The notes below the pieces were generated by a model. That model did no database searches. It saw nothing but the letters and a program-made list of their open reading frames with translations, and had not been told where the DNA came from. A stretch of 24,000 bases of DNA from Candidatus Harpocratesius repetitus (lineage in GTDB: Archaea > Asgardarchaeota > Lokiarchaeia > Sigyniarchaeales > Promethearchaeaceae). A program made the position numbers and the translations under genes. Of this stretch, positions 4,318 through 23,481 are shown one piece after another; positions within the stretch are counted from its first letter, which is position 1, and every line of letters starts with the position of its first letter. Location: positions 716,448-740,447 of the forward strand of contig JAIZWK010000001.1 in the NCBI GenBank assembly GCA_021498095.1. Direction: 5' to 3'.

Positions 4318-4585
4318 TCGTGGGGATCTAGGCAATCCCTTGAAACTCTATACAGAGTGGAGCCGTGCCTATAACGGACTGAGAAAATTTCGAAAGAATA
4401 TGAATTTAGTTAAAAAAATAATCTTACTAACCAATGATACACTCCCTATTTGAGATGAGCTATGGTAAAGTCATTTTCGTAGGAAAATGATAATTACCTT
4501 AAAGAACAAAATCGGCAAGGCCAGGGATGGAGCAACCGTAAGTTCAATAGTTTATGCACAAGTTGTGGGGTGTTAAGGTCCAAGA
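4318..4585 (+). ncRNA. Signal recognition particle RNA (7S / SRP RNA); ends approximate
   Basis: GC-rich, ORF-free island between two genes. Helix-8 apex 'GGCCAGGGATGGAGCAACCG' (4519-4538) is CCA-GGGA-TGG (a GNRA tetraloop hairpin) followed by the conserved AGCA(AC) loop. Helix-6-like hairpin CATTTTC-GTAG-GAAAATG (4472-4489) has a GNAR loop. Alu-domain-like 5' part has hairpins GGGAT-CTAGGCA-ATCCC and ACTCT-ATAC-AGAGT, plus 'CCTATAACGG' resembling the UGUNR motif. Confidence 0.7.
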
Positions 4586-4623
4586 TTATAGATTTAATTA
4601 AACAATTATTCCTGAAAAATTGA

Positions 4624-4983: not shown

Positions 4984-4990
4984 TTTATTT

Positions 4991-5575: not shown

Positions 5576-6465
5576 AAACTTTCAAATGTATCAGATAACT
5601 TTGATGTTTTTTCTAAATTTAATAATGAAAAGAAATTTGCACCCCATTCATTCAAAATAAACTGTAAAATCCTTTCTATAGGTGCATGTTTATAATCAAT
5701 AGTAGAAAATAAAACCCTAGGAGAAAGATTTGTTTTTATATTTAATGCATCTAATATTTGAATTCGATTTAAAATATTAATTGATCTTTTACAAGCATTA
5801 AAGAAGTTTAAAATTTCTTTTTTTATTATGTTTTCTTTAATCTCTTTCTCTTCAATTTCAAAATTCATAATTGATTTTTTTTCTTCTACTGGAATTTTTC
5901 GATAATTTGTTCGTTTTGAAATAATTCGCTTCATTTTTTCAATTTCAATTTCTGTTCTATTTATAGCATTTTCATAAATCCACTTTTCAAGAGAAAGATC
6001 AAAACTTGGAAATGACTTACCGACTATTTCTGTTTTTAAGCTTTTTTCATCAATTTCAAGCTTTAAAAAATAATCAACAAGTGAGTACATTTTATTATAA
6101 ATTTTAATATAGTTTGCATAGGAGTTTTTGTCAATAATAACTCCAAATATCCAAGATTGGAAAGTGGTGATTGTCTCAATTGCTTTTAAAGAGGCGTTAG
6201 GAAAACATAAGAATACGTTTCGTTCACTATTTAAATCATTTTCTTCATATTCTCGAATCTCCAAATAATCACTTAGTTCAATAAAATCAGATAGAAAAAT
6301 CAAATTATTCCTGAAAGGTATTAGTGATATTAGTTCATTGATTAAATTTTCTATAATCTCTTCTTGATCTGATATAATTACAATAGGAATTCTATCTAAT
6401 AAGCATTTTAATAATAATGATACATCTTCAATTTCTGATTGACTAAAACGATTTATCAAATCCAT
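5566..6465 (-). CDS. Uncharacterised 299-aa protein with a core-DENN-like motif pattern in the N-terminal half (hypothesis)
   Basis: ATG at 6465 is preceded by GGTGA (minus strand, 6476-6472), complementary to the 16S 3' end. It is wedged between the Roadblock and GTPase genes. 'LLLKCLLDRIPIVIISDQEEIIENLINELISLIPFRNNLIF...SWIFGVI' resembles the cDENN pattern LL-x-R-hhhh-S/AD...L-hYPF-W-x-h-YIP...PFhIG. The C-terminal half is helical. Confidence 0.75.
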   Translation of the reverse strand: MDLINRFSQSEIEDVSLLLKCLLDRIPIVIISDQEEIIENLINELISLIPFRNNLIFLSDFIELSDYLEIREYEENDLNSERNVFLCFPNASLKAIETITTFQSWIFGVIIDKNSYANYIKIYNKMYSLVDYFLKLEIDEKSLKTEIVGKSFPSFDLSLEKWIYENAINRTEIEIEKMKRIISKRTNYRKIPVEEKKSIMNFEIEEKEIKENIIKKEILNFFNACKRSINILNRIQILDALNIKTNLSPRVLFSTIDYKHAPIERILQFILNEWGANFFSLLNLEKTSKLSDTFESLWG

Positions 6466-6476
6466 TGTATTTCACC

Positions 6477-7490
6477 TTATAATAATAATTGGTTGAAAAT
6501 AGATTCAATTTTTATTGGTGGAACTAATTTTGAGCTATTTTCTGATTCTTTCAAGATTTTTTCTAATTTATTACAATATTTTGGAATTACTAATCTTAAA
6601 AGCCCTAATTTTTGTCTACCTTTTGCGATTCTGGCAGAAAAAATTGCTGATCGAATTTGATTTATAAATTGAAACTCATCAATACATTCTAATAAAATTG
6701 ATGTTATATGCATTCTCTTCAATTGCCAAGCACATTTATCTGCTGTATAGAATAAAGATTGACTGAGAGTTGCTTCTTTTTCCAAATTATCACTGGTTCT
6801 ATTCATTTTATTTTCTAAACTTGAGAGAATGAAGCCACCTTCAAAAGTAATGAATGTATTTATCAAATCAAATGTATTCCTACTAAAATCATCTAGTAGA
6901 TTATCTAGTTGATCATATGAAGATTGAGCAAAACTTAATGAAAACATAGGAATTCGCTCCTTCTTTTCAACCTCGTCTTTATTTTCTATTGAATTAAGAA
7001 ATCTTTGCATTTCTTCAGGAGAATAATGTCTCATTGGTGGTTTAAAAGAATTCTTTGATAAAATAAGACATTTTTTAATTTCAGCTAAACTAGAACGAAT
7101 TTTTAAAAATATTCCTCCTAAATTTACATTTGATTTCGTTGTTATAGCAACGTAAAATTCTTCATTTAGATTTTGTAAATTTTGAGCTTGAATGATCTTA
7201 TTAATTGTGGTGTTTCCATAATTTTTTAAAGGTGTGATTAATATTTTTGCCATTTTTCCTTCAATTAATATATATTTTAACTTATTTTGATGTAAACTTA
7301 ATCCACAATTATAGATTGCTGAGGTCGCAGCACAGATACTAAATAATTCTTCTTTAGAAAGCCAAATGCCACTATGTTGAATTGGATTTCCGTCTCGTTG
7401 TGTTAAAACAACATTATCTACTCCTTTTGTGGCTTTAATAAGATCCAAATAAGATTTTATTTTCATTGTTAGTGAAATTTTCTTCACCAT
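6477..7490 (-). CDS. Tandem Roadblock/LC7-domain protein (MglB-like), 337 aa
   Basis: The N-terminal domain 'YLDLIKATKGVDNVVLTQRDGNPIQHSG...ELFSICAATSAIYNCG...ILIEGKMAKILITPL' fits the Roadblock/LC7/MglB pattern. A second similar unit lies near the C-terminus ('FDLINTFITFEGGFILSS...SQSLFYTADKCAWQL...SILLECIDEFQFINQI'). It is the first gene of the operon that contains the MglA-like GTPase. Confidence 0.8.
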   Translation of the reverse strand: MVKKISLTMKIKSYLDLIKATKGVDNVVLTQRDGNPIQHSGIWLSKEELFSICAATSAIYNCGLSLHQNKLKYILIEGKMAKILITPLKNYGNTTINKIIQAQNLQNLNEEFYVAITTKSNVNLGGIFLKIRSSLAEIKKCLILSKNSFKPPMRHYSPEEMQRFLNSIENKDEVEKKERIPMFSLSFAQSSYDQLDNLLDDFSRNTFDLINTFITFEGGFILSSLENKMNRTSDNLEKEATLSQSLFYTADKCAWQLKRMHITSILLECIDEFQFINQIRSAIFSARIAKGRQKLGLLRLVIPKYCNKLEKILKESENSSKLVPPIKIESIFNQLLL

Positions 7491-8129: not shown

Positions 8130-9627
<1,498 letters not shown>

Positions 9628-9718
9628 ACAACGCACCGAAGGTATCATCCTTCGGGCATTTCTTTTTATATAATTGATTTTAAATTTATTGTTTGACTAT
9701 TACAACTAAGCTGCTTTT

Positions 9719-9791
9719 GGGCCTATAGCTCAGTTGGTAGAGCGCCTGACTTGCACTCAGGAGGTCGGGGATTCAAATTCCCCTAGGTCCA
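9719..9791 (+). tRNA. tRNA-Ala (anticodon UGC), in the 16S downstream spacer position
   Basis: Acceptor GGGCCTA/TAGGTCC with the G3:U70 alanine identity pair. D arm GCTC-AGTTGGTA-GAGC, anticodon stem CCTGA/TCAGG with loop CTTGCAC, T arm GGGGA-TTCAAAT-TCCCC, discriminator A. A T5 run follows. Confidence 0.95.
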
Positions 9792-10010
9792 TTTTTATTC
9801 ATGAAGAATGAGATTAATTTGTACCAAAATTTTTAATATTTTTAACATATAAGAAAAATTAATGTTCTTAATACCTTTAAAGTTAGCAGATTGGGATATG
9901 GATAAATTTCGATTGCGATTACAATTATTAAGTGTGTTGGTAATTGTTGTAATACTTATTTATGTTGTTTTTTCTTCGAAAGATAATGAGAGTTAATTTT
10001 TTTTAATTAA

Positions 10011-11225
10011 TTATTTTGGTTTAACTGCAGATACTATTTTGATAATATCATTATTCTTTAATTCATAATGTTCACCTAAACGCATTTTTGATCTTGCATC
10101 TAAACCGTAAATGAAATTCTTTGCTAGATCTGAATGAATTTTTGTTTCAACAAATTTCTTCAATTTTGTATTTTTTAAGACTAAATGTGCATCAGGTAAT
10201 ACATTTCCATCTTTATCAGAAAATGAATTCGTATCATAAACAGGATATACAACAATTTGATTTAATACATTGAAAACAGAATAATTTATTATATCTTGAA
10301 TACCTGTACTATTGTATTTTTTGAGTATTTTTTCTTCAATATTTTTAAGTGCGTTTAGTTCAGATTTTTGCAATTTTTCATTTTGTATTATTTTAAACTT
10401 AGTATCACCTGGTAAATATTCAATAATTCGATCTTCTGCATATTTTCTTAACCAATACTCTGCTAAAGCACTACATGGGATAATTTTCCCTTTATATTTT
10501 CTTTTTAATTCTGTTAACATTTGTTCTCCATTATGCTTATCTATTTTATTTGCTGCAATTATTATTGGTTTTGAAATTTCTCTTAATTTTCTTGCAAAAT
10601 CGAAAATATTGTCATCATTCCATTTTGTTAATTTCTCAAAATCTAGATTAATAGAATTCATTGCATTAAGAATATGTTCTTTTTGAATACCAATTCCAGC
10701 TAACCTTTCATGCAATAAATCTACAAATGATAGTTTTTCTTGTTCAATCTTTCTAACAAATTTTCCCCAATCTTTTTTAATAATAAGATCCTTAAACCAG
10801 AAATTAATTTCATCCTCCAAAAATTTTATATCATCTAGCGGATCTCTTGCCCCTTCATCAATATCTTGACCTTCAGCATCTAGACTTCCAGAAATATCTA
10901 TAACGTGAATTAATACATCTGCTCGTGCAAGATCTGATAAAAATTGATTTCCCATTCCCTTTCCTAAATGCGCATCAGGAACTAATCCTGCAACATCCAG
11001 AAGTTTCACAGGAATAAACCTATTTTGGTTTATGCAAATAGAGTTTTTTGGATTATCTTTAATATTTAATTCTCGACATGCACAAATTGTTCTAACAAAA
11101 GATTTTCCTAAATTTGGTTTGATAGTTGTAAATGGATAATTTGCTGTTTTATATTGAGTCAAACAAGCTGCATTAAGGAATGTACTTTTCCCAGAAGAAG
11201 GTTTCCCAACAATTCCAATAAGCAT
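10011..11225 (-). CDS. Obg-like GTPase of the Ygr210 type (TRAFAC GTPase with C-terminal TGS-like domain)
   Basis: 404 aa. G1 'GIVGKPSSGKSTF', G2 'NYPFTTIKPNLG', G3 'LLDVAGLV', G4 'AANKID', and a C-terminal 'GEHYELKNNDIIKIV' TGS-like beta-grasp. The long insertion between G3 and G4 is typical of the archaeal/yeast Ygr210 subgroup. Confidence 0.85.
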   Translation of the reverse strand: MLIGIVGKPSSGKSTFLNAACLTQYKTANYPFTTIKPNLGKSFVRTICACRELNIKDNPKNSICINQNRFIPVKLLDVAGLVPDAHLGKGMGNQFLSDLARADVLIHVIDISGSLDAEGQDIDEGARDPLDDIKFLEDEINFWFKDLIIKKDWGKFVRKIEQEKLSFVDLLHERLAGIGIQKEHILNAMNSINLDFEKLTKWNDDNIFDFARKLREISKPIIIAANKIDKHNGEQMLTELKRKYKGKIIPCSALAEYWLRKYAEDRIIEYLPGDTKFKIIQNEKLQKSELNALKNIEEKILKKYNSTGIQDIINYSVFNVLNQIVVYPVYDTNSFSDKDGNVLPDAHLVLKNTKLKKFVETKIHSDLAKNFIYGLDARSKMRLGEHYELKNNDIIKIVSAVKPK

Positions 11226-11272: not shown

Positions 11273-13852
11273 CTATGAATTTTGACTTAAAAGATATTTT
11301 ATTGCTGGCTCTAATTCGTGAATTATAACATTTTCAATGATTTTTTCATTTGGTTCTTTGATTAACAAAGGTTGTGATTTATTAAGTAAAATTTTTAATT
11401 TTCTATGTAATTCTTTTAATTCTTGCTTGATCAATTTGCTATTTTCAATTATTTGTTTCTTCTTATCTAATATATCTACAGAAGAATTAGGTGATTGTAA
11501 TTTTGGCAGATTATATCCTAAGAAAACCTCATCGCTTTTCTTTTTTAATTCATTAAGATGAATTTCAATCAAATTGATTATTCTGCTTTCTTCAATATTA
11601 AATAATTTAGAATGTGAACTTGCTAAGGTAAAAATGATTTTAAAATCATAATTAGAGTATTTTAATTCTTTTGGAATAAAAATAACATATCTTTTCTCGA
11701 TTTTTTCTTTATATAAATTTTTAGAGAGATTTTGATAAGTTTCTTGACAGTAATTTTTATACAATTCATTTATCCGTAAACCTAAGGAATAAAAATCCAA
11801 AACATGATTTGAATCTTTTTCAATAATAAAAACCTGAAGTGATAATAAATCTTTATTATCTTGGAGATTTTTCTTAAAATCTTGTATATTTTCATTATCC
11901 TCAAAACTATTTTCCGTTTTTAGCGCATTTCTTACAATTTTCAATAATTTCAAGCCATTAAGACAGTCTTCAATTCTTAATTCAGAATTATGCGATTTTT
12001 CAAAAAATTTCTTTAAAAGAATATAGCGCTTTTGAATTTCATTCCATCCTCTAACAGTTAATTGCTCATTCTGAATTTTTGATATCAATTTGTCAAAAAT
12101 GGAGAAAATTTTTGACATAGCTCCCAAGTAGTTATCGCAAAATATGAGTTCTTCAATTTGGTGAATATGCTTTAATAGGTCTTTATAAATCTCATGCATA
12201 ATTCTAAGTTTTCTTTTATTAAAAGTCAAAGTTTCTTCTTTTTCTAAGTTGTTTTGTATTTTTTTCGGTATTTTATCTATTTTTTTAATTAATTTTGGGT
12301 AATTAGTAATATGTTCTCTTTTTTTCAGCTTTGACTTTCGGAAAAATTGATTTTGATTTTTATTCTTTTTAATTATAGATCCTTCAATATTATTCGTGTA
12401 AAGTAGAAAAGGTTTTGCATTTGAGTAGGTTTTAATTATACACATCCCAGTAGGAAGATCTTGAATATTGAATATCTGGTCTTTTTCAATGCCTAAATGA
12501 TAAATGACATCTTCACTTCTTTCATTAAACTTAAAAAACAGTTTTGTTCCTGAGTTTAATATTATGTTTTTACTGATATCCAATGAAGTAGTAATCGAAA
12601 GGAGCCCTTCTCCTTTTCCTCTTAATAATAATGCTATATCTTCTAAATATAATGATACATTCGATAAATTAACAAGTTTATTTGATGCAATGTATGAGAC
12701 ATCCTCAAAAATTGTTAAATGCATTAACTGATCTGTTGGTTTACGATTCATTGCCATTTCCCAAATCCATTTTAGAATTAAATTGGCAAAGAATATTAAA
12801 TCTTGCTTTGAACCACCTAACTTTAAAATACTTCCTAAATCGATAACCGTTTTTCTTTGAAGTATCTCTGAAACTTTTAAAGTTTTATTAGAATCATTAA
12901 ATACAGCACTTAATGGTCCAGAATAAAATCGTCTTAATCTGTTCTTGATGCTAACAATTGTATTTCCAATTTGTGGAATACTATTTTTTAATTGATTTTT
13001 TGAATCATCCAAGATTGAAAAGAATTTATTCCATGTCTTTGGTTCTGATGATTTGCATACTTTATTTAACACATTTACAAGCACACTTTCCATTTGAGGT
13101 GAAAATTCTGAATTGAACTCAAGGATTCTACATGATTTTAGGCTATCAAATAGAATTTCTGCATAATTATCACTAGAAAATATATCCTTATCAAAAAGAT
13201 TAATTGCAAAATTAATTCCTGGTTCTAGTATTAAAAGATCTGGAATAAATGTCTGTAATTGGGTATATTCTCCTTTAAATTCAAATAATGTAAATGGAAT
13301 TGTTTTTAATTTCTTGCTTATTTTTTTTAAGAAATACATAATAAAACTAGTTTTTCCAGTGCCCGTCTGGCCATAAATTAAAATATGTCTTTTTAATTCT
13401 TCAATATCAAGACTAAATTTTTGTAAATAATGATTTTTATAAATGATTACTCCTAGGGGAATGGATTTTCTTCTTTTTCTTTTTGGTTTTTTTGTAGGTT
13501 TATATCCCCACCAAGTACAATTAAAACGTTTTTGGTGAATTCTTTCTATATAAAAAATACCAATAATAAAACAAAAATCGATAATATAAAAAATTTGCAT
13601 TTTAATATTAAATTGGATTAAATTCACAAGAAACATAATTAAGTTTTTAAAGATAATTAAAAATAATAAGGATTTTATGAAAATTGAGTTATAGATTTTA
13701 AATTTTCTCAGTTTCCATATCTGAAATATAAATACACTAAAACTAGCACAAACAATACAAATATTTAACACTAAAGTAATTATCCAGAAATTGTTATACG
13801 TCATTATTAAGGAATCAATTCTAAAAATTGAGGAAATCACGAGTAAAACCAT
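11273..13852 (-). CDS. Membrane-anchored HerA/FtsK-superfamily P-loop ATPase with long C-terminal coiled-coil region (859 aa)
   Basis: About 100 aa of hydrophobic helices are followed by the basic patch 'KKPKRKRRK'. Walker A is 'ILIYGQTGTGKTSF' (aa ~157-170). HerA/DUF87-like blocks are 'TLFEFKGEY', 'TVIDLGSI' and the Walker B-like 'HLTIFEDVSYIA'. Further blocks are 'RGKGEGLLSITTSLDISKNIILNSGTKLFFKFN'. The last ~370 aa are K/E/L/I-rich heptad-like sequence. Confidence 0.75.
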   Translation of the reverse strand: MVLLVISSIFRIDSLIMTYNNFWIITLVLNICIVCASFSVFIFQIWKLRKFKIYNSIFIKSLLFLIIFKNLIMFLVNLIQFNIKMQIFYIIDFCFIIGIFYIERIHQKRFNCTWWGYKPTKKPKRKRRKSIPLGVIIYKNHYLQKFSLDIEELKRHILIYGQTGTGKTSFIMYFLKKISKKLKTIPFTLFEFKGEYTQLQTFIPDLLILEPGINFAINLFDKDIFSSDNYAEILFDSLKSCRILEFNSEFSPQMESVLVNVLNKVCKSSEPKTWNKFFSILDDSKNQLKNSIPQIGNTIVSIKNRLRRFYSGPLSAVFNDSNKTLKVSEILQRKTVIDLGSILKLGGSKQDLIFFANLILKWIWEMAMNRKPTDQLMHLTIFEDVSYIASNKLVNLSNVSLYLEDIALLLRGKGEGLLSITTSLDISKNIILNSGTKLFFKFNERSEDVIYHLGIEKDQIFNIQDLPTGMCIIKTYSNAKPFLLYTNNIEGSIIKKNKNQNQFFRKSKLKKREHITNYPKLIKKIDKIPKKIQNNLEKEETLTFNKRKLRIMHEIYKDLLKHIHQIEELIFCDNYLGAMSKIFSIFDKLISKIQNEQLTVRGWNEIQKRYILLKKFFEKSHNSELRIEDCLNGLKLLKIVRNALKTENSFEDNENIQDFKKNLQDNKDLLSLQVFIIEKDSNHVLDFYSLGLRINELYKNYCQETYQNLSKNLYKEKIEKRYVIFIPKELKYSNYDFKIIFTLASSHSKLFNIEESRIINLIEIHLNELKKKSDEVFLGYNLPKLQSPNSSVDILDKKKQIIENSKLIKQELKELHRKLKILLNKSQPLLIKEPNEKIIENVIIHELEPAIKYLLSQNS

Positions 13853-13949: not shown

Positions 13950-15533
13950 ATGAGTTTAAACCAACCTTATTTAGTATTAAAGGAAAACACGCAACAATTG
14001 AAAGGAAAAGATGCATTAAAAACTAACATTGAAGCAATTAAGGCAATTGCAGAAACAATTCGAACAACTTTAGGCCCTAAGGGTTTGAATAAAATGTTAG
14101 TAGATTCGTTAGGTGATATAACTATCACTAGTGATGGTAGCAAAATACTAGAAGAATTAAGTATAGATAACCCAACAGCTAAAATGATTGTTGACCTTGC
14201 TAAAACCATTCATAAGAATGTTGGAGACGGCTCAAGTTCTGTTGTTTTATTCATTGGTGCTTTAATGGATAAAGCTGATGAAATGATATCAATGAATTTA
14301 GCACCAACAATAATTTATGAAGGTTATTTAAAAGCTATAAAATTCTTAAAACAAGAAATTAATAATATTTCCAAAAAAGTAACACCAGAAAATACTGATT
14401 TTGTTAAATCTTCAATTGTTCAGACTGCATTACGTAGTAAATCTCTGATGGATGCTCAAGATTTATTTACTAATATCATTGTAGATGCAATTAGTAAAAT
14501 ACAAGAAAATCGAGCAGATAAACCATATATTGATTTAGACAATATCCAGATTATCAAGAAAGAAGGAGAAGGGTTACATTCAACAAGATTAGTTGATGGA
14601 ATTATTATCGATAAAGAAGTTGTTAGTCCAATTCTTCCTAAAACTATCCAAAATGCAAAAATTGCCCTTCTCAACGGTGCTTTAGAGATAGTTAAAACAG
14701 ATTTTTCTTCTGAAATCCAAATTTCTGATCCTGAGGAAATCCAGAAATTTTTAGAACAAGAAGAAAATATGATAAGGGTTTTAATTGAATCCATTCATTC
14801 ATCTGGAGCAAATGTTGTTTTTTGTCAAAAAGGTATAGATGAAACTGCACAGCATTTTCTTTCGAAATATGGGATTCTTGCTGTTCGTCGTGTTAAAAAT
14901 TCCGATATGCAGAAAATTGCTAAAGCTACTGGGGCTAAAATTGTCACTCAAATCAAAGATTTAACTTCATCAGATCTTGGAACTGCAGGAATTGTCAGCG
15001 AACGAAAGATCGGTGGAGATAATATGGTTTTTATTGAACATTGTCATAACCCAAAGGCAATTACAATATTAGTAAGAGGCGGGACTGAAACAGGAGTAAA
15101 TGATGCAGAACGTTCTTTAAAAAACGGATTGAGCGCTCTTAAATCTTTAATTGAAGTACCAAGATTTGTTGGTGGTGGTGGCTCCATTGAAATTGAATTG
15201 CGCAAACGAATCCTTCAATATGCAGAAAAAGTTGGAGGAAAACAGCAAATTTCTATTGAAAGTTTTGCAGATGCTTTAGAAATTGTTCCCACAATATTAA
15301 TTGAAAATTCTGGTAATGATCCCTTGGACATTCTTACATCACTAAGATCTCAAGTCGATTACAGCCAAAACAAATGGTTTGGATTTGATGCAATTTCACG
15401 TAATATTGTAGATGTGCAAAAAGCAGGAATTATTGATTCAATGGAGATTAAATGGCAAATTTACAACCTTGCAACTGAATTGGCTGTTATTTTCATTCGA
15501 ATTGATGATTATATTAAGGCAAAAGGAAAATAG
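13950..15533 (+). CDS. ths: Thermosome subunit (group II chaperonin, CCT/TCP-1 family)
   Basis: 527 aa. Motifs: 'TLGPKGLNKMLVDSLGDITITSDGSKILEEL', 'GDGSSSVV' (a variant of GDGTT), 'ILVRGGTETGVNDAERSLKNGL', 'VGGGGSIEIEL' and 'GIIDSMEIK'. Confidence 0.95.
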   Translation: MSLNQPYLVLKENTQQLKGKDALKTNIEAIKAIAETIRTTLGPKGLNKMLVDSLGDITITSDGSKILEELSIDNPTAKMIVDLAKTIHKNVGDGSSSVVLFIGALMDKADEMISMNLAPTIIYEGYLKAIKFLKQEINNISKKVTPENTDFVKSSIVQTALRSKSLMDAQDLFTNIIVDAISKIQENRADKPYIDLDNIQIIKKEGEGLHSTRLVDGIIIDKEVVSPILPKTIQNAKIALLNGALEIVKTDFSSEIQISDPEEIQKFLEQEENMIRVLIESIHSSGANVVFCQKGIDETAQHFLSKYGILAVRRVKNSDMQKIAKATGAKIVTQIKDLTSSDLGTAGIVSERKIGGDNMVFIEHCHNPKAITILVRGGTETGVNDAERSLKNGLSALKSLIEVPRFVGGGGSIEIELRKRILQYAEKVGGKQQISIESFADALEIVPTILIENSGNDPLDILTSLRSQVDYSQNKWFGFDAISRNIVDVQKAGIIDSMEIKWQIYNLATELAVIFIRIDDYIKAKGK

Positions 15534-15567
15534 TCGATTTTAAAATTAAATTTAGATATTTTAATTA

Positions 15568-15578
15568 TTTTTTTTTTT
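15568..15578 (+). terminator. Oligo-T tract downstream of the thermosome gene
   Basis: T11 run 35 nt after the stop codon, in the convergent gap with tsr3. Consistent with archaeal oligo-T termination, but the AT-rich background lowers confidence. Confidence 0.4.
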
Positions 15579-15621
15579 ATCTTTTCTTTGACTATAAAAT
15601 AAAAGATATATAGAATTAGGA

Positions 15622-16131
15622 CTATTCATATTTGGGTAAAAAATTGCGATTAATTTCCCAAAAAGTAATTCCCCATTTAAATTTCTCTAAAAGATTGTAC
15701 GCTTTTTGCGGAAACCCTGCATAGTATAAAGCAGCTGCTAAAGCTTCTGCAGAACTTAGTTTATCCCATTTTCCATAGTTTACAGTATTAGCTGCAAGTA
15801 AATGTGGAAGTCTGCGTCCTGTTTGAAATTTATGGGTGAAAATCGTATCAATTTGTTCCCACGAGCAATCAATTACAATTATTCCATATTTTGCAATCGA
15901 AATATGATCGTTTTGAGAAATTTCTTTTTCTGAGAAAGGATCCAAGATAATTGCTTTTTTCGGAAATCGCTGCAATTTTTTTCCCATTTTAACCACACCA
16001 AATTTTGCTAGTTTAACAACAGTATTTTTCTTGGGATCATCTTGATTAAGATATAAACAAAATAAACGAGGTTCTTGAGGCTCCATTTTTTGTGAGGGAA
16101 TTTTTATATGTTTGGAAACGTTGACTAACAT
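15622..16131 (-). CDS. tsr3: Tsr3, 16S/18S rRNA aminocarboxypropyl (acp) transferase
   Basis: 'DPKKNTVVKLAKFG', 'IIVIDCSWEQ' and 'RRLPHLLAANTVNYGKWDKLSSAEALAAALYYAGF...FKWG' match the conserved Tsr3/DUF367 core. The true start may be the internal Met at 16086 (MEPQEPRLFCLY). Confidence 0.85.
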   Translation of the reverse strand: MLVNVSKHIKIPSQKMEPQEPRLFCLYLNQDDPKKNTVVKLAKFGVVKMGKKLQRFPKKAIILDPFSEKEISQNDHISIAKYGIIVIDCSWEQIDTIFTHKFQTGRRLPHLLAANTVNYGKWDKLSSAEALAAALYYAGFPQKAYNLLEKFKWGITFWEINRNFLPKYE

Positions 16132-16153
16132 AAACAGTTTTGCATTTGATAAT

Positions 16154-16237
16154 CGCGGGGATAATCAAGTCTGGTCCACGATGCTGGACTTAGGATCCAG
16201 TGCATAGCGCCGCGAGGGTTCGAAGCCCTCTCCCCGC
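16154..16237 (+). tRNA. tRNA-Leu (anticodon UAG), class II with long variable arm
   Basis: Acceptor GCGGGGA/TCCCCGC, 3-bp D stem ATC/GAT, anticodon stem CTGGA/TCCAG with loop CTTAGGA, 13-nt variable region, T arm GAGGG-TTCGAAG-CCCTC, discriminator A. Confidence 0.85.
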
Positions 16238-16518
16238 ATTTTATTCATAAATGGATAAATTTTTCGAATTTATAAGAGAGATGATAAATATCATTACACT
16301 TTTTTAATTTCATTCTCGTCTTTTCGCCAAATTTTACTAATAATAAAAATTGAAATTGTTATAAAATAATACTTTTTCGAAATTTGTAATTATAATAAAA
16401 CTAATTCAGTTGATGTTAGTTTTGTTATGGGATACTGAAATTTTTACGGTATTCTTATTTAGTATATTAGTAATACATAGATTATTAATCAATATATTGC
16501 ACTGCGAAGTTGAAAACT

Positions 16519-17526
16519 ATGAGTGTTAGAGAAAGTTTAGTAAAACATTTATCTACCATCATCCGCTCTTCGAAAGCAACAATAATGGCGCTATTATCTG
16601 ATGAAAATGGCCTAAGTATTGCTAAGACAGGTCGTAGCACAGATTTAATTCTTGATAGTAACGCCATTACCAGTGTTTCATCTGCTGCTTTTTCATCAAG
16701 CGAAGAAAATTGGACTGATTTAGGGATTCAAGATCAAATTATCGCCTTTTCTTTTTTTGAAAAAATTTGTCTTATTACTATCCGTATTCAACAAACTCTT
16801 TTGACTATTGTTCATGATTATAATCTGGACTGGCCTTTAGATGCAGATAGTATAGGCTCAAGTATTTATCACTTAAGACGAGAAATTCATAATTTCTTTG
16901 GTTCAGGGGAGATTAGTGAATCTGAAATAGAAGAATTCAGTAATAATGTTAGAGGCGCGATATATCTAAGTAGCATGGGAACCGAAATTCCATTTGCTTC
17001 TTATGCTCCATCAAATCATCAATCATTAGAATTAAATCAGAATATTTCTGCTATCTTAGATTCAATACAAAATCCAATATTTATTGAGTATGGGTTAGTA
17101 AATTCAAGTGGACTAACAATTGATGCAAGGGATTTATCTCCTGATGATGTAGAATTGTTGTCAGTAGATGCTTTTAGTGCAAATGCTAATGTTGGCTTTC
17201 AAAAGATGGTAGAGGAAGCAGATTCTATGAATATTGGAGGGTTGGTTTCATATCTCTGTGTTTCTGGCCCTGATCCAGAAAATTTCTATGGTATTCTTAG
17301 TAATCCTTGTGGAAAACTGCATTTTAAAGATTCAGCAAGTGGTAGTGAGATTCTTTTACCAGTTTCTTTTGTTTCTTTATTTCCAATGATGTACGGTGCT
17401 GTTCCAGTACTGTGTGAAGCAAGAAATATTGCCCATTCTATTATTGAGGTTATTGGTGAAGATCATATCACCAAAAAATTTATCAATAGTATCAACGTAA
17501 TTGTTAAGTCAAAATACGAAGAATAA
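16519..17526 (+). CDS. Second tandem Roadblock/LC7-domain protein (about 335 aa)
   Basis: The N-terminal unit is 'LVKHLSTIIRSSKATIMALLSDENGLSIAKTG...ITSVSSAAFSSS...IIAFSFFEKICLITI'. The second unit is 'ILDSIQNPIFIEYGLVNSSGLTIDARD...SVDAFSANANVG...LVSYLCVSG'. The ORF track begins at a TTG (16510), and I prefer the ATG at 16519 (MSVRESL...). Confidence 0.75.
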   Translation: MSVRESLVKHLSTIIRSSKATIMALLSDENGLSIAKTGRSTDLILDSNAITSVSSAAFSSSEENWTDLGIQDQIIAFSFFEKICLITIRIQQTLLTIVHDYNLDWPLDADSIGSSIYHLRREIHNFFGSGEISESEIEEFSNNVRGAIYLSSMGTEIPFASYAPSNHQSLELNQNISAILDSIQNPIFIEYGLVNSSGLTIDARDLSPDDVELLSVDAFSANANVGFQKMVEEADSMNIGGLVSYLCVSGPDPENFYGILSNPCGKLHFKDSASGSEILLPVSFVSLFPMMYGAVPVLCEARNIAHSIIEVIGEDHITKKFINSINVIVKSKYEE

Positions 17527-17907
17527 TTTTTTAAGAATTAACAAATAAAATTTTTTTTGTTTTTTCACCAGTATAATATAGATTAACTAGATTAATTGAG
17601 GATATTTTATCATTTTTAATTTAAACGCTTTTTTGAATATCATTTATATATATCTGACTTAAATGTGAAATATCGCAATTCTTTTTTTGTCGAACTCGAT
17701 TTTTTCAAAGAATTTGTTAAAAATTTACCATCTTGTTTATAAATTCTTCAATCTAATGTCTATTTTATTATAATTCTTGATTTACATATCTTGAATTTGG
17801 CACCTTGGTAAAATCGACAAAAAATAAGAAAGGATATTTTAGAATTGAGTCGGGAAAGTTAAGATGATAAAATGAAAAACTTCGAATTTTTAAAATTTAA
17901 AATACCC

Positions 17908-18627
17908 TCAATTGATATTTGAAATTCTTTTCCGGATAGGTTTTTTTGCTACTGTTTTATTCACTTTTCCCTTTTCTTCAGGATAATAGCGCGTTTCAAA
18001 ATCATCCCAAGATTTTGAAAAAACATGATTAGTAAATGCTTCCTTCAATCCTGAAATCTGTTTTAATCGGAGAACTTCATCTTTATCCATTCCTAATTTT
18101 TGGCAAATTTTTTCATCACTCCAACCTTGTCGAACTAAATCTAGTACTATATCAGACATGGAACGAATATGATGCGTTCCTCTCGCTCTATTATGCCGAA
18201 TGGTAGATCCCATGCGTTCATCTAGTGGTTTATCAATAATAGTTAAGGGAAGATGAGCATTTATTCGCTCTTTAATATCTTTGAATTCGCGTCCAACTCG
18301 ATTTCGGTGAAATCCGTCAACAATTTCATAATTTCCGTTTTCTAAGCGATATGCGACAATTGGTTGTGTATAACCATCGGATTTAATTGATTCATAAAGA
18401 AGTTTCATTTCTGGTTGTGCGACTCTGTTTGGATTGTATGTATTCGCCTGTATTTTCTCTATAGGAATCCATAACACTGTATCAACAGGTTCGCTAAATG
18501 GGGAAAACTGCGAGATTTGAGTACGTAATTCATTCAAATATGACACTTGTTCTTCAAATGACATGCTTTCTAGATCTCTACGAATTATTTTTATGATCTC
18601 TTTTATATTATTCATTATATTACTCAC
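17908..18627 (-). CDS. ParB/sulfiredoxin-fold (ParB N-terminal domain) protein, IbrB-like
   Basis: 239 aa. 'IPIEKIQANTYNPNR...LLYESIKSDGYTQPIVAY...NYEIVDGFHRNRVG' is the ParB-N/Srx core with the DGxHR motif. It is followed by 'STIRHNRARG' and an HTH-like 'SDEKICQKLGMDKDEVLRLKQ'. It lies 64 nt downstream of, and co-directional with, the PP-loop gene. Confidence 0.8.
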   Translation of the reverse strand: MSNIMNNIKEIIKIIRRDLESMSFEEQVSYLNELRTQISQFSPFSEPVDTVLWIPIEKIQANTYNPNRVAQPEMKLLYESIKSDGYTQPIVAYRLENGNYEIVDGFHRNRVGREFKDIKERINAHLPLTIIDKPLDERMGSTIRHNRARGTHHIRSMSDIVLDLVRQGWSDEKICQKLGMDKDEVLRLKQISGLKEAFTNHVFSKSWDDFETRYYPEEKGKVNKTVAKKPIRKRISNIN

Positions 18628-18691
18628 TTTTGTATTTTCTTTTTATATCTTTATCTTTCATATTCTTTTTTGTGTTTATTCCCCTTTTTCA

Positions 18692-20284
18692 TCAATCTTC
18701 CTTTTTTTTTCCACATTCAATTGCCTCGATTCTCTTTCGTAATTTCCGTTGAATATGACCGTCTCCTGTTAATCGATGTTTTTCACGTAGTTTAATTAAA
18801 AGTTCGTCTCCTGCTTTGTCATATCCAAAATCCAGATAAGTCATATAAAAATCATTTTTTTCAATCGCTCGAGCTACTGTCTGCCAAGAAACTGATTTTC
18901 CTTTTCCTGCATCAGGCATTTTTCCATACGGAATTCCTAGATTCTTTTCACACCAAAGCATATAGTATTTTATTTTCTCGTAATAACGTCGCATTATCAA
19001 TGGTTCATAAATTCCTATAGATTCAAGTAAAAAAATCGTGTACTGTTGCCAGGTTAAATGATCGGGTTTCATTGAGGTGAGGTTTCCCAATAGAGATGTA
19101 CGACAGTATATCGCACCAAAATTAACTCCCTCCACCCGCTGCAGTAACCGCTCCCATGTTTCTGGTTCAATTACTCGATATTGATCCAATCCTGCTTTTT
19201 GTGCTGAACCAAATGGTTGACATATTCGCTGGAGCGAAAGAGGAACTCCATTTTTATACATATCTTCATAAACATGATTATAATCTAAATTAAATTTTGC
19301 CACACAACCCCAAATATCTTCTACTTTCCAATCATAAATCGGATATGCATTATAAATATTTGGTAATATTTCTGTAGTCCAAAATAATCCCTTATAACGT
19401 GGTTTATCTCGGTTTGCTACAGCTAAAAAGCGACGGAGAGATTCATCAGTGCGAATTCCTACAACTATTGCTGTTCGTTTGGCTTTTTTCGTTTTATGAA
19501 GCCATTGTGAGTATTGAAAAATAAAACGGTCAAAATCATTTATGTTTTCAGCAAAAGGGAAAGGATTATTATCCCAAGTAATAGCACCTTCAGGAATATC
19601 TCTTACCCAATGTTCTCTTGCAGATTCATCCCAAGTAATAAACTCAGGATTTAAAGCTGAGGTAGCATTGTCTTCACAAAACGGTAAACAAATCCAGTAA
19701 AAATTTTCACAATTTGGTTTCACTTCTTCACGTAATGATTCCACAAAGCGAGCAGTCTCCATATACATGGCTTCAAAATCAATGAACATTACAGAAAACT
19801 TTTTGCCCATTTCTGCAGCTACCATATTAGCAAGTTGAAGTGTTACCCCCGAATCTTTTCCTCCGCTAATGGCAAAGCTTATATTATCAAATTCAGTAAA
19901 AAGTAATCGAAGTCGGGCAAAAGTAGCATCTAATACATTTGTTTCATTATATATTTTTTTGGATTTTCTCACGTATTTTATTTCAGGCGAAGTTATCTGA
20001 GATATTTTTTGTTTGGGTATTTTTCCTTTTTTTGAAGTCTTTTCTTTTTTCTTTTTTGATAAATCAGAATTAGCTGAGAGACTTCTCTTTGTTTCCATTT
20101 TACTTTTTATTACAAATTCTGATTGTTTTTGTTTTTTTTTTCTTTTTAGAGTGATTGAATGAGAAGGTTTCGGAATGACTTTCACTGTGTCTTGAAATCC
20201 TCTTTCCTTTTTTAGCTGATCAAGAAGTTTAGATTGATTTTTAACTACATTCATAAATTCACAGTCACCCCGCCTCTTACCCAT
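18692..20284 (-). CDS. PAPS-reductase-family PP-loop ATP pyrophosphatase with C-terminal extension, IbrA-like; Lys-rich N-terminal extension
   Basis: 530 aa. The PP-loop 'ISFAISGGKDSGVTL' (aa ~136-149) is followed by 'FIDFEAMY' and 'VVGIRTDESLRR', typical of the PAPS reductase/DndC/CysD fold. A ~170-aa C-terminal region lies beyond the fold. The first ~108 aa are K/S-rich ('KRKKKQKQ', 'SKKKKEKTSKKGK'). Confidence 0.8.
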   Translation of the reverse strand: MGKRRGDCEFMNVVKNQSKLLDQLKKERGFQDTVKVIPKPSHSITLKRKKKQKQSEFVIKSKMETKRSLSANSDLSKKKKEKTSKKGKIPKQKISQITSPEIKYVRKSKKIYNETNVLDATFARLRLLFTEFDNISFAISGGKDSGVTLQLANMVAAEMGKKFSVMFIDFEAMYMETARFVESLREEVKPNCENFYWICLPFCEDNATSALNPEFITWDESAREHWVRDIPEGAITWDNNPFPFAENINDFDRFIFQYSQWLHKTKKAKRTAIVVGIRTDESLRRFLAVANRDKPRYKGLFWTTEILPNIYNAYPIYDWKVEDIWGCVAKFNLDYNHVYEDMYKNGVPLSLQRICQPFGSAQKAGLDQYRVIEPETWERLLQRVEGVNFGAIYCRTSLLGNLTSMKPDHLTWQQYTIFLLESIGIYEPLIMRRYYEKIKYYMLWCEKNLGIPYGKMPDAGKGKSVSWQTVARAIEKNDFYMTYLDFGYDKAGDELLIKLREKHRLTGDGHIQRKLRKRIEAIECGKKKED

Positions 20285-20415
20285 TTATCTATGCTTTTCT
20301 TTGTTTATTATATATCAATATCGGTATTTTATCAATGTAATTATTAATACTAAACTATTTTTAGATTTTGATGATTGTTCTTATATTTTTTAGTAATGCG
20401 CTCAATATTTAAATT

Positions 20416-20964
20416 ATGGCTTTAAACTCTGATTTTTATTCTATTAATGATTTTAATTTAACCTTACTTGAATATTCATCTATTGATAAATTTATTCGAG
20501 TCATTAATTCGAATTACGAACGGATTAAACCTTTTCTAATCAACCGATACCAACATCAAGCTTATTTCTTGACACCATTATGGGTGGATAAAATTTTTAA
20601 AAAACACAAATGCTATTACTTTCATTCAAAAAAGAATCCTAATGACGCAATTGGGGCTGTCACCCTCAAAAAAATTGTCGATTTTGCCTATATTGAATAT
20701 TTCTTCATCGATGCTTCTTGTCTTCATCGTGGATATGGAAAAATTATGCTGGATTTGATGGAGAAAATCATTCGAGATCTCAAACTCAATAAAATACGCC
20801 TTTTAGTTCATAAAGATGCTGTATGGGCACAGCATGCTTATCAAAAATATGGATTCCACCTTCTTCTTACAGATAAACATCAAATCATGGAGTTTGAAAA
20901 TGGAAGAATTGCACCTTATTTTCTAGTCAACCATTTACTCTATGAAAAAATATTATTAAATTAA
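20416..20964 (+). CDS. GNAT-family N-acetyltransferase
   Basis: 182 aa. Acetyl-CoA motif A 'FFIDASCLHRGYGKIMLDLMEKII', then 'IRLLVHKDAVWAQHAYQKYGF'. Divergently transcribed from the IbrA-like gene. Confidence 0.75.
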   Translation: MALNSDFYSINDFNLTLLEYSSIDKFIRVINSNYERIKPFLINRYQHQAYFLTPLWVDKIFKKHKCYYFHSKKNPNDAIGAVTLKKIVDFAYIEYFFIDASCLHRGYGKIMLDLMEKIIRDLKLNKIRLLVHKDAVWAQHAYQKYGFHLLLTDKHQIMEFENGRIAPYFLVNHLLYEKILLN

Positions 20965-21200
20965 GAATGATTAAATAAATAAAAATGCTAAGGTAGTAAA
21001 AGCCGCGAGGAGTGAATAGGTTAAACATAATATTGCCATCGCTCAATTTTTACATTGTTTTTTCTTTATTTCTTTGATAATATAATCATGAACATAAAAG
21101 TTGATTAAATTCGATCTAATTCTTAGATATACTTAATTCTATTTTCCAATTTAACCAAATTAAGATCTAATTATGAATAATTACATAATAATAGAATTGG

Positions 21201-21275
21201 TGCCCACGCAGGGATTCGAACCCTGGTCATCGGGGTGAAGGCCCGAGATGCTTGACCGAACTACACTACGTGGGC
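21201..21275 (-). tRNA. tRNA-Glu (anticodon UUC); CCA encoded at 21198-21200
   Basis: Reverse complement folds as GCCCACG-TA-GTGT-AGTTCGGTCAA-GCAT-C-TCGGG-CCTTCAC-CCCGA-TGAC-CAGGG-TTCGAAT-CCCTG-CGTGGGC-A-CCA. TTC sits at 34-36. Position 33 reads C rather than the near-universal U. Confidence 0.8.
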
Positions 21276-21582
21276 TTGAGAATTCACTTTGGAATATGTT
21301 ATATAATAGGGCATAATTTTAAAATTTTTCGAGAATCTAGAGTAAAATCGTCATTTTTGTCTGAACACCTCAGAAAACCGTAAAAATTTTATGCAACCTT
21401 TCCCAAATAAGAGCGAATTGCCTTGAGTCTTCCATCTTTGCAAAACTGATATGATATTTCAAGGTCAGTTATAATTTTTTTCAGAATCCACTTGTGATAA
21501 AAGTGATTATTCCACCGAACTTATCAATACTCTCATTTCAGAATATATAAAAAAGTATTTCAAATTTTGTGTCTTTCAAATC

Positions 21583-21732
21583 TTATATTTCATATCTTAT
21601 GCGTAATAGTATTTCATCTACAGGAATATCAAGTTCATCTGCCCAACGACATTTCGCTTTAACTGCTGAACACTGTTCGTCTGAGCGCTCTGAGTATTCT
21701 TTCCAAGAAATATGATTATTTGTTAATACCAT
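21583..21732 (-). CDS. Candidate small ORF (49 aa), function unknown
   Basis: My own translation: MVLTNNHISWKEYSERSDEQCSAVKAKCRWADELDIPVDEILLRIRYEI*. It is locally GC-richer and less compositionally biased than the surrounding ORF-free DNA. It is below the ORF-track length cut-off and I recognise no homology. Confidence 0.25.
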   Translation of the reverse strand: MVLTNNHISWKEYSERSDEQCSAVKAKCRWADELDIPVDEILLRIRYEI

Positions 21733-22268
21733 ATAGAAATAGGAACAATTCAAGGATAAATATGTAAAGAATAACGAATTTTGGAATATTTTTGAAGATT
21801 ATTTCCAATCTAATATTAGAAAAATTGCAAAATTTAATTGATTCGACATTTTTCGACAATATAATTATGATTTATAGAGTAGAATACTAATGCATAAGTA
21901 TTCAATCAGATTTTTTCAATTCTATGGATATTCAAAAAAAAATAAGAGATTGAGAAATTGAAAGAAATTTTGGCTAAAAATTAACGAATTCTAATCTCTG
22001 ATATATAATTTTAATTTATGAAAAAAATAGCTAAATTAATTGATAGAATTAGGAAAAATGCGATTTTCAAAACAAAATTATCGCATTAATCAATACTAAC
22101 TAATAAAAATTATAGGAGAAAATGAAAGAATATTCCAATTAATTGTAAGCGTTTTTATAACTGATAACAGACAAATTAACATTTCGCTTTTTGAACAAAA
22201 AAATTTTTAATTGAATGAATATTTTATCTTTTGTTGGTTCTTCAAGTAAAACTAATAGATTTAACCTT

Positions 22269-22341
22269 GCAGGAGTAGCTTAGTCGGTAGAGCGGTCGGC
22301 TGTTAACCGGCAGGTCGCAGGTTCGATCCCTGTCTCCTGCG
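22269..22341 (+). tRNA. tRNA-Asn (anticodon GUU); CCA encoded at 22342-22344
   Basis: GCAGGAG-TA-GCTT-AGTCGGTA-GAGC-G-GTCGG-CTGTTAA-CCGGC-AGGTC-GCAGG-TTCGATC-CCTGT-CTCCTGC-G-CCA, followed by a T5 run. Confidence 0.95.
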
Positions 22342-22515
22342 CCATTTTTCTCCCCATTTTAACCGAGAGAATTGTATTTTTATTACAAAATCAAGCATCT
22401 TTTTTGAGATAAAATCTTTGGTTGAATTTTCTTTTAATTGAAGAAATCAAAATTTTTGATAAAGATTTTTTAGCAAAAGATGAAAATTTTTTCGGGATGT
22501 AATGCTCAATAATGT

Positions 22516-23481
22516 ATGTCAAATAAATCTTTACTGGTGCTTGGTTCTATTGCATACGATTTTATCATGCAGTTTCCAGGAAATTTTAATGATAATCTAA
22601 GCATTGACACTGAAAAGAATATTTTTAATTTAGCTGTAATGCCAAAATCAAAGAAAAAGAGTTTTGGCGGGACCGCAGGAAATATTTCCTATAATTTGGG
22701 AATTTTAAACGTTCCCACTCGAGTGATTACAAGTGTCGGGAAAGATTTTGAAACTTTGGGATATAAACAGCGTATTAAAAATATGAAAAGTGTGGAATTT
22801 TGGGGTGATGAGCATCTTGATGAATTTACTGCAACTTGCTATATTGTGAATGATCAGAATCACAATCAATTAATAATTTTCCATGAAGGAGCGATGAAGC
22901 GATGTTCTAATATAAAACTAGCAGAACATGGTATTTCTAAGGATTCTATTCAATTTGCTTCTGTGAGTCCTGATAATCCTGGAGCGATGGTAGCATGGGC
23001 AAAAGAATTGATTAAGTTAGAAATTCCATTTTTATTTGATCCAGGGCAGATGGTGCATTATTTTAAGAAGCAAGATTTGATGGAAATTATTCCTAATGCC
23101 TATCTAATAATCGGAAATGAGTTTGAAATGACAAAAATTGAAGAGATTCTTGAGACTGATTTGGAAGGTTTACGGGCGCTAAATTCAATGATAATTATAA
23201 CATTAGGAGAGAAAGGAGCGGTTTGTTATTGGGGAGAAAATGAAAAATATATTCCACCAATGACTGTAGAGCATGTAGCTGATACAACAGGAGCGGGTGA
23301 TGCATTTCGTGCAGGCTTACTTTATGGAATATATCATCAGATGTCTTTAGTTAAAGCTTGTAAATTTGGTGCAATTATAGCTGGATATACGATAGGAACT
23401 GTGGGTCCACAAAATCAGTCATTTGCAATTGAAGAAATCCAGGAAAAATTCAGATTAACTTATAGAGATGAATTATTTTAA
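22516..23481 (+). CDS. PfkB-family carbohydrate/nucleoside kinase (ribokinase superfamily)
   Basis: 321 aa. N-terminal 'LVLGSIAYDF', di-Gly region 'FGGTAGNISYNLGIL', and the C-terminal ATP/anion-hole motif 'DTTGAGDAFRAGLLYG'. The substrate cannot be assigned from sequence alone. Confidence 0.85.
   Translation: MSNKSLLVLGSIAYDFIMQFPGNFNDNLSIDTEKNIFNLAVMPKSKKKSFGGTAGNISYNLGILNVPTRVITSVGKDFETLGYKQRIKNMKSVEFWGDEHLDEFTATCYIVNDQNHNQLIIFHEGAMKRCSNIKLAEHGISKDSIQFASVSPDNPGAMVAWAKELIKLEIPFLFDPGQMVHYFKKQDLMEIIPNAYLIIGNEFEMTKIEEILETDLEGLRALNSMIIITLGEKGAVCYWGENEKYIPPMTVEHVADTTGAGDAFRAGLLYGIYHQMSLVKACKFGAIIAGYTIGTVGPQNQSFAIEEIQEKFRLTYRDELF

Follow-up and report, generated by a model that had tools for sequence, protein, structure and literature searches.

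A 24,000-nucleotide (nt) stretch of the Asgard archaeon Candidatus Harpocratesius repetitus (GenBank assembly GCA_021498095.1, contig JAIZWK010000001.1, positions 716,448–740,447 of the forward strand), hereafter the window, carries a chromosomal copy of the IbrA/IbrB module, which is represented in Escherichia coli by YbdN/YbdM and consists of a COG3969-type PP-loop enzyme and an IbrB-type ParB/Srx protein. The pair was acquired from bacteria or their phages by an ancestor of the Lokiarchaeal lineage and is now a stably inherited, chromosomal two-gene cassette. The family had already been recognised and named, so that the locus does not represent a new kind of system. The window is an archaeal chromosome segment of low GC content (about 27–33%); besides a 16S rRNA gene it carries five tRNA genes and the genes for a thermosome and Tsr3. 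The features of the pair, in window positions, are as follows (aa, amino acids; HTH, helix-turn-helix).

18692..20284 (-): IbrA-like gene, 530 aa; PAPS_reduct domain at about residues 135–344, DUF3440 helical domain from about residue 346, helical C-terminal tail
19970..20284 (-): Lys-rich low-complexity N-terminal extension of IbrA, about residues 1–105; 25% Lys, net charge +21
19850..19867 (-): PP-loop SGGKDS of IbrA, residues 140–145; invariant in alignments A1 and A2
18628..18691 (-): A-rich spacer of 64 nt between IbrA and IbrB
17908..18627 (-): IbrB-like gene, 239 aa from GTG; N-terminal helical hairpin, ParB/Srx N-domain, HTH-like domain, basic C-terminal tail
18304..18318 (-): DGFHR of IbrB, residues 104–108, ParB/Srx nucleotide-binding pocket; D104, G105, H107 and R108 invariant, F106 nearly so
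18178..18198 (-): RHNRARG of IbrB, residues 144–150, equivalent of ParB 'box III'; R144, H145, N146, A148, R149 and G150 invariant in 52 sequences
17908..17991 (-): basic C-terminal tail of IbrB, residues 212–239; net charge +7
20285..20415: divergent intergenic region of 131 nt, shared by the IbrA gene and a GNAT gene
20304-20315: TATA-like ATATATAATAAA, 20–31 nt upstream of the IbrA ATG, by direct reading of the sequence

Identification of the gene pair

IbrA is a full-length homolog of E. coli K-12 YbdN (37% identity over 387 columns, E 1e-79) and matches the phage family phrog_2302 (1.5e-83), and IbrB is a full-length homolog of E. coli YbdM (49% identity over 190 columns, E 2e-68) and matches the phage family phrog_2159 (2.4e-74). 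Because homology E-values reach down to 1e-254 for non-identical relatives, chance open reading frames (ORFs) are excluded; moreover, the 530-aa gene call of IbrA is identical in two independent assemblies. The IbrB ORF begins with GTG, and the NCBI gene call begins at an ATG four codons downstream (18615), which gives 235 aa. An initial annotation, made by a model from the letters of the window and the translations of its ORFs, had described an IbrA/IbrB-like pair of co-directional genes of 530 and 239 aa, 64 nt apart and in the A-then-B order of the bacterial pair, and had picked out the motifs SGGKDS, DGFHR and RHNRARG; all of these were recovered at the positions listed above. What it called a long C-terminal extension of the PP-loop protein corresponds to the DUF3440 domain and the helical tail, and the ParB-N core with an HTH-like tail that it saw in the 239-aa protein is borne out by the domain and model matches of IbrB described below.

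The two genes overlap by 4–8 nt in the Asgard relatives L003, L005 and L008, compared with the 64-nt spacer in the window. The TATA-like ATATATAATAAA would yield a leaderless or short-leader IbrA transcript, and in a genome of 27% GC it is weak evidence. In the aligned upstream regions of four Asgard loci, no conserved motif of operator or promoter type was found.

Sequence and structure of IbrA

In Pfam, IbrA matches PAPS_reduct (2.6e-13) and then DUF3440 (4.3e-23), both over the gathering scores. Its SGGKDS aligns with SIGKDS of CysD (PDB 1zun), the closest solved sequence relative, and the family-invariant residues of alignment A1 are kept, namely S140–S145, D169, E171, R278, E281, S282, R285 and others. 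The AlphaFold model (predicted local distance difference test score, pLDDT, 81) has an alpha/beta domain of PAPS-reductase type and, after it, a helical half. Matches of the N-terminal half, with E of about 1e-6, are to CysH, APS reductase, CysD and the PAPS domain of FAD synthase, FMN adenylyltransferase is also found among the structural matches, and the top match to viral protein structures in BFVD is a COG3969 protein (E 1.2e-15); for the helical half, structure searches returned no match to a solved structure. Among the cysteines, C355 is the sole family-conserved one, and a Streptococcus phage homolog has Asp at this site. The motifs EC[GS][IL]H, CxxC and CC are not present in the IbrA sequence, and there is no conserved catalytic, redox or Fe-S cysteine set.

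The Lys-rich N-terminal extension, which does not appear in the initial annotation, is lacking in bacterial and phage homologs and is shorter and poorly conserved in the two closest Asgard relatives in alignment A1; a Pfam search of it at E<=10 gave nothing meaningful. Its coding sequence contains a run of ten A (about 20131-20140, minus strand), which could be prone to slippage, and an internal Met (residue 63) lies just downstream of the run.

We considered whether IbrA could be a DndC. The DndC model TIGR03183 scored 21.4 against a cut-off of 290.4 and the PADLOC DndC model gave 26.8 bits over about 70 residues; IbrA lacks the cysteine cluster, and neither the window nor the Asgard loci have a DndA, DndD or DndE among their annotated ORFs. 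Hence this assignment was rejected. PADLOC v2 contains no model of this pair, and no system was matched; IbrA gave weak partial DndC and BrxP hits, and IbrB, the GNAT protein and a 338-aa neighbour gave none. The initial annotation had noted the lack of adjacent Dnd, ParA or restriction genes and of a sulfate-assimilation context; no Dnd, ParA, restriction or Cys-assimilation gene is present anywhere in the window.

Sequence and structure of IbrB

IbrB matches ParB_N of Pfam (7.2e-9) and keeps all residues that are invariant in the family, and its ParB N-domain also matches the phage DNA-methyltransferase family phrog_498. When DGFHR is aligned with GERR of Noc, H-R falls on R-R and the Glu is replaced by Phe. 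The AlphaFold model (pLDDT 82) matches the N-domain together with the DNA-binding domain of ParB, Noc and KorB, with E of about 1e-7 and over 160–184 aligned columns, compared with about 85–90 for kinases; sulfiredoxin and SbnI gave weaker matches, over the core only. The best TM-score among the matches belongs to the KorB-KorA repressor complex 8qa9 (0.48/0.54). In the C-terminal region, a Pfam search at E<=10 gave only sub-threshold matches of HTH type (wHTH-PRTase_assc 0.0014, HTH_23 0.026). The model ends in a short, disordered basic tail and has no dimerisation domain, and this tail is present in the Asgard-clade proteins displayed in alignment A3 and not in the bacterial ones there. NCBI names the protein 'ParB/RepB/Spo0J family partition protein', and a close Harpocratesius homolog from the same 90%-identity cluster is labelled 'IbrB-like domain-containing protein'.

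Gene linkage and partner genes in the family

In an exhaustive search, the hits below 1e-30 fell into about 250 clusters at 50% identity, and relatives are encoded on at least 562 viral stretches; the family is commonly found in phages, and E. coli K-12 has a copy too. IbrA was adjacent in all 80 viral loci that were fetched through IbrB, and IbrB was found in 12 of the 13 reference-genome loci that were fetched through IbrA, the thirteenth breaking off at a contig end. Moreover, the pairwise divergences of IbrA and IbrB are correlated over 98 loci (r=0.88), a value that none of 999 permutations reached. Because any tightly linked genes would correlate somewhat, this correlation indicates co-inheritance and not physical interaction. 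The initial annotation had named three findings that would refute its reading, namely grouping of the PP-loop protein with CysH or CysD, a partition ParB as the second protein, and a lack of co-inheritance; none of them was borne out.

In 31 of 104 loci, which include Clostridium, Streptococcus and Flavobacterium phages, the gene of an SNF2-family helicase lies either upstream or downstream of the pair and next to it, and in the 894-aa protein P0043 the helicase is fused to the N-terminus of IbrA. A scan of ten long family members for fusions found only the one in P0043 informative; an ABC_tran fragment in P0333 was discarded as a clue since it looks like a gene-call chimera. Often just ahead of the SNF2 helicase there is a conserved protein of about 380–450 aa (phrog_16123) without a Pfam match.

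In 21 bacterial or viral loci, the gene of a small GNAT protein (about 120 aa, range about 118–180) without a PHROG family stands between IbrA and IbrB; this suggests that some versions of the system involve acyl transfer. Both orders of the two genes exist among the fetched loci. When IbrB comes first, it is about 380 aa long, with an extra C-terminal region of about 170 aa that has no confident Pfam match, and in nine such loci a DnaB-helicase/Toprim primase gene follows IbrA. The three groups of loci are:

SNF2 helicase adjoining the pair: L017, L020-L023, L025, L027-L042, L047, L058-L060, L063, L069, L070, L074, L085
GNAT gene between IbrA and IbrB: L009-L015, L027, L039-L041, L047, L049-L051, L053, L055, L057-L059, L074 (for example L013:7302-7658)
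IbrB before IbrA: L061, L062, L064, L071, L073, L075-L104 (for example L090:7983-9125)

Integrase, DnaB-primase, ERF recombinase and exonuclease genes recur as phage early or lysogeny neighbours, and annotated temperate or ex-temperate phages of Firmicutes have the cassette flanked by the lysis genes on one side and by the integrase or Cro region on the other. Recurring transporter or metabolic genes were not seen near the pair among the fetched loci.

Origin and residence of the Asgard copy

The nearest homologs, with 53–82% identity in IbrA, include Lokiarchaeota, Promethearchaeota and Sigynarchaeota, and the next tier, with 46–50% identity in IbrA and 60–69% in IbrB, comprises Clostridia, Bacilli and viral contigs. 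The pair belongs to an Asgard-specific cellular clade, and because Clostridia and viral contigs are its nearest non-Asgard relatives, a bacterial or phage origin is indicated. The window locus is syntenic with that of a Promethearchaeota metagenome-assembled genome (L008), whose IbrA is 81% identical. The order PfkB, tRNA-Asn, IbrA, IbrB, 338-aa gene, tRNA-Leu, Tsr3 and thermosome is common to both. In two other Asgard genomes (L003 and L005) the pair is present and the flanks are entirely different.

No integrase gene was found in the window and the composition profile of the window has no break; a search for direct and inverted repeats over 15500-23000 gave short AT-rich matches only (70–90% identity) and no duplicated tRNA fragment. 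A provirus or island was rejected on these grounds. No IMG/VR contig with IbrA more than 45% identical to the window copy was found, in a pattern-based search that does not prove absence. Synteny with L008, the lack of att repeats and integrase, and the lack of such a contig together indicate stable residence. Phage genes, among them those for SNF2 helicase, embedded GNAT and integrase, are lacking near the pair in the window.

The initial annotation had taken the pair for accessory or horizontally acquired cargo among tRNA genes. The tRNA genes are there (Leu 16155, Glu 21198, Asn 22269), and horizontal acquisition agrees with the bacterial or phage origin; the status of accessory cargo does not agree with the conserved chromosomal position or with the lack of integrase and att scars. 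The divergent GNAT gene that it listed with the pair is also present (20416-20964). This gene was rejected as a third component of the Asgard module, because it is absent from L008 and the profile of the 21 embedded GNATs did not match it at E<=10; it is a lineage-specific neighbour. Nor is the archaeal context that it pointed out new, since IbrA/IbrB were earlier reported on the Heimdallarchaeal virus HeimV2 in the paper that also released this genome (Wu et al. 2022, PMC8813620), and NCBI already applies the 'IbrB-like' label to Harpocratesius proteins.

Several neighbouring sequences deserve mention. The 338-aa ORF (16510-17526, plus strand) is convergent with IbrB, has no match in Pfam, NCBIfam, PHROG or PADLOC, and keeps its position in L008 (8170-9177); BLAST detected no paralogy with the Roadblock protein of the window. 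Between tRNA-Glu and tRNA-Asn, a segment of about 1 kb (21276-22268) gave no Rfam match at E<=1, and its ORFs do not exceed 56 aa; L008 lacks the segment, together with the GNAT gene and tRNA-Glu.

Proposed mechanism

We tentatively propose, giving it somewhat less than an even chance, that the pair is a DNA-directed, ATP-dependent modification or regulatory unit, in which IbrB targets and gates IbrA on DNA and IbrA adenylates a group on DNA, so modifying it or priming it for modification. In adenylating a substrate, PP-loop enzymes cleave ATP to AMP and pyrophosphate. Members of the PAPS-reductase branch typically use oxyanions as acceptors, CysD taking sulfate and FAD synthase the phosphate of FMN, and the DNA backbone is the substrate of DndC. 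Among ParB/Srx proteins there are nucleotide-gated DNA clamps, regulators and phosphotransferases. In the scheme that we propose, IbrB would bind DNA through its helix-turn-helix domain, its ParB/Srx N-domain would serve as a nucleotide-gated switch, and IbrA would be recruited or controlled by IbrB. The PP-loop of IbrA would then split ATP to AMP and pyrophosphate and adenylate the target group on DNA, and the outcome would be a covalent modification or a local change of DNA state that alters gene expression or the recognition of DNA by other systems. In the phage versions, the SNF2 translocase would move the unit along DNA, and in the Asgard version the Lys/Arg-rich tails of both proteins may be extra nucleic-acid anchors.

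The adenylation chemistry is suggested by the motif, SGGKDS being invariant and aligned to the PP-loop of CysD. The choice of DNA as the arena is suggested by context, namely the ParB/Noc/KorB match of IbrB, the adjacency and fusion of SNF2, the phage neighbours, the parallels with the Dnd and Dpd systems, and the match to phrog_498. For an effect on gene expression there is experimental evidence from E. coli only, where ibrAB activates prophage eib genes (Sandt et al. 2002, as cited in PMC7649339). A nucleic-acid modification or conflict module, as the initial annotation put it, is still something that we infer, and the SNF2 and phage evidence strengthens it. A bolder form of this idea, which we consider unlikely, would be a self-contained, cross-domain and chemically new DNA-modification system, in which a ParB-type switch loads a PP-loop adenylating enzyme that installs an as yet undescribed adduct on the backbone or on a base. 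Phages would use it, aided by SNF2 or GNAT, to disguise or regulate their genomes, and Lokiarchaeia would have domesticated it, with basic tails, as an epigenetic mark of their own chromosome.

Alternative explanations

The pair may instead be purely regulatory, with IbrB acting as a transcription switch of the ParB family, in the manner of VirB, an anti-silencer, or KorB, a repressor, and with IbrA sensing or consuming a nucleotide or cofactor without any covalent change of DNA. The sole experimental phenotype of the family, as relayed by a later source, is the activation of prophage eib genes by ibrAB in E. coli (Sandt et al. 2002, as cited in PMC7649339); ybdNM of E. coli is itself controlled by the repressor YbdO/CitR (PMC9068703), and the KorB-KorA complex gave the best TM-score for the IbrB model. 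However, regulation of this kind leaves unexplained why an enzyme with an invariant PP-loop is kept beside IbrB, and co-evolves with it, in essentially every locus, and why it is the enzyme, not the DNA binder, to which an SNF2 translocase is recruited or fused. We hold a purely regulatory role to be possible, on the unlikely side.

The pair could also act on a small molecule, IbrA adenylating a soluble oxyanion or metabolite like CysD and FAD synthase, and IbrB being either a coupled nucleoside triphosphatase (NTPase) like CysN or a kinase like SbnI and sulfiredoxin; the product would be a signal or a cofactor, or nucleotide pools would be altered during infection. This is consistent with CysD, the partner of the GTPase CysN, as the closest solved relative of IbrA, with FAD synthase and FMN adenylyltransferase among the structural matches of IbrA, with the matches of IbrB to sulfiredoxin and SbnI, with the H-R of DGFHR where CTPases have R-R, and with GNAT as a frequent third gene. 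We nevertheless consider it rather improbable, because the IbrB model fits ParB, Noc and KorB over both domains and better than it fits the kinases, because the SNF2 adjacency and fusion point to DNA, and because transporter or metabolic genes do not recur nearby.

Modification of tRNA or other RNA, as carried out by the PP-loop enzymes TilS, ThiI, TtuA and NcsA on tRNA, would suit a locus flanked by tRNA genes, and IbrA has weak structural matches to TtuA, NcsA and TilS. However, the tRNA neighbourhood is not kept in L003 or L005, the best matches of IbrA belong to the PAPS-reductase branch and not to the tRNA-thiolase branch, Fe-S cysteines are lacking, and the ParB-type partner and the SNF2 association are features of DNA-directed systems, so that this role is very unlikely.

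Assimilatory sulfate metabolism, with IbrA as CysH or CysD, is assumed in phage annotations of 'cysH auxiliary metabolic genes', and the phage literature places DUF3440-bearing proteins with CysH (bioRxiv 10.1101/2021.01.05.425418); the Pfam PAPS_reduct match is in its favour. Yet the NCBIfam models of CysH, CysD and APS reductase gave IbrA only 16–31 bits, against cut-offs of 154–413. Among the CysH-type models the scores were 23.7 against 165.1 (TIGR00434), 22.4 against 254.2 (TIGR02057), 19.5 against 235.3 (TIGR02055) and 31.4 against 154 (NF002537), and the CysD model NF003587 gave 25.1 against 195, with no CysN or EF-Tu-type gene in the window. IbrA has no ECGLH and no CC...CxxC, its PP-loop is of the canonical ATP type, cys genes are not present in the window, and the ParB partner is always there. 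IbrA was hence rejected as a CysH or APS reductase, and a role in sulfate metabolism, to which we give hardly any probability, is already refuted for practical purposes. Least of all do we believe in a chromosome or plasmid partition ParB beside an unrelated neighbour: a ParB_N domain, top structural matches to ParB and Noc and the NCBI name speak for it, but TIGR00180 gave 25.6 against 58.45, DGFHR stands in place of GERR, a short disordered tail stands in place of a dimerisation domain, the linkage to IbrA is strict and the window holds no ParA, so that this explanation too, which the initial annotation had set aside, is already refuted for practical purposes. No search was aimed at the parS consensus, and the general repeat scan over 15500-23000 gave short AT-rich matches only.

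Other genes of the window

A HerA/DUF87-type ATPase gene (859 aa, 11273-13852, minus strand) lies about 4 kb from the pair, with the thermosome and Tsr3 genes in between, and no evidence links it to IbrA/IbrB. Directly after the 16S rRNA gene and a tRNA-Ala comes the gene of an Obg-like GTPase, in opposite orientation (8130-9792 and 10011-11225); no 23S rRNA is present in the other 14 kb of the window, and the small-subunit gene appears to be unlinked to the large-subunit gene. A cluster of Asgard 'eukaryote-signature' type occupies 1898-7490, with genes for a TFIIB-type zinc ribbon protein (1898-2923, minus strand), an Arf/Ras-family small GTPase (4991-5575, minus strand) and a Roadblock/LC7-domain protein of 337 aa (6477-7490, minus strand), and with three ORFs without a Pfam match (3136-4284, 4624-4983 and 5566-6465).

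Significance

Phage copies are routinely counted as 'cysH sulfur-metabolism auxiliary genes'; for the DUF3440 clade, the evidence from motifs and context speaks against CysH. As the Asgard copy shows, the module works in the absence of any phage context: two lineages with 81% identical IbrA have preserved the pair intact at a single chromosomal position. Because IbrB is 60–69% identical across the divide between archaea and bacteria, a highly constrained and host-independent target, for example DNA or a universal nucleotide, is indicated. To the known family the present analysis adds the near-absolute linkage statistic, the associations with SNF2 and embedded GNAT, the separation of DUF3440-type phage 'cysH' from CysH, and a chromosomal, syntenic and phage-free Lokiarchaeal clade with basic tails and an unusually high conservation of IbrB across domains. 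Tractable constructs for finding the reaction are offered by the recurrent partners SNF2 and GNAT, by the archaeal form with its minimal set of two genes and by the paralogs in E. coli K-12.

Comparison with known systems

The closest known counterparts are IbrA/IbrB of the E. coli ECOR-9 island and their K-12 paralogs YbdN/YbdM, which share with the window pair the PAPS_reduct and DUF3440 enzyme, the ParB_N and HTH partner, the A-then-B order, and the motifs SGGKDS, DGFHR and RHNRARG with the R..ES..R block. The window pair differs in its Asgard host, in the Lys/Arg-rich tails on both proteins, which are not found in the aligned bacterial and phage sequences, in its 64-nt gap where those genes overlap, and in having no adjoining regulator of LysR type like YbdO/CitR. 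The SNF2-IbrA-IbrB cassettes of Clostridium phage phiCs5676-1, Streptococcus phage CHPC1148 and Flavobacterium phage VK52 contain the same phrog_2302 and phrog_2159 pair, and IbrB of viral-contig copies is up to 69% identical to that of the window. Unlike these cassettes and the HeimV2 copy, the Asgard clade occupies a conserved chromosomal position and was not found on IMG/VR contigs (best IbrA 45%).

More distant comparisons concern the combination of enzyme and partner. CysD has the same type of PP-loop as IbrA and works only together with its NTPase partner CysN (PDB 1zun), whereas the partner here has a ParB/Srx fold and not that of a translational GTPase, and the context is not one of sulfate assimilation. 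In the Dnd system the ParB-like NTPase DndB partners the PP-loop enzyme DndC, so that DndC-DndB, like SspD-SspE, combines a PP-loop ATP pyrophosphatase of the PAPS-reductase family with a ParB/Srx-superfamily protein of DG.HR type that acts on DNA (PMC10853773), although IbrA has neither the 4Fe-4S cysteine set nor the cysteine dyad. Finally, while DpdA is a transglycosylase and not a PP-loop enzyme, the 7-deazaguanine modification system may offer a parallel in organisation only, because DpdA, a DNA-modifying enzyme, needs the ParB-like ATPase DpdB as a partner to act on DNA (PMC12839542).

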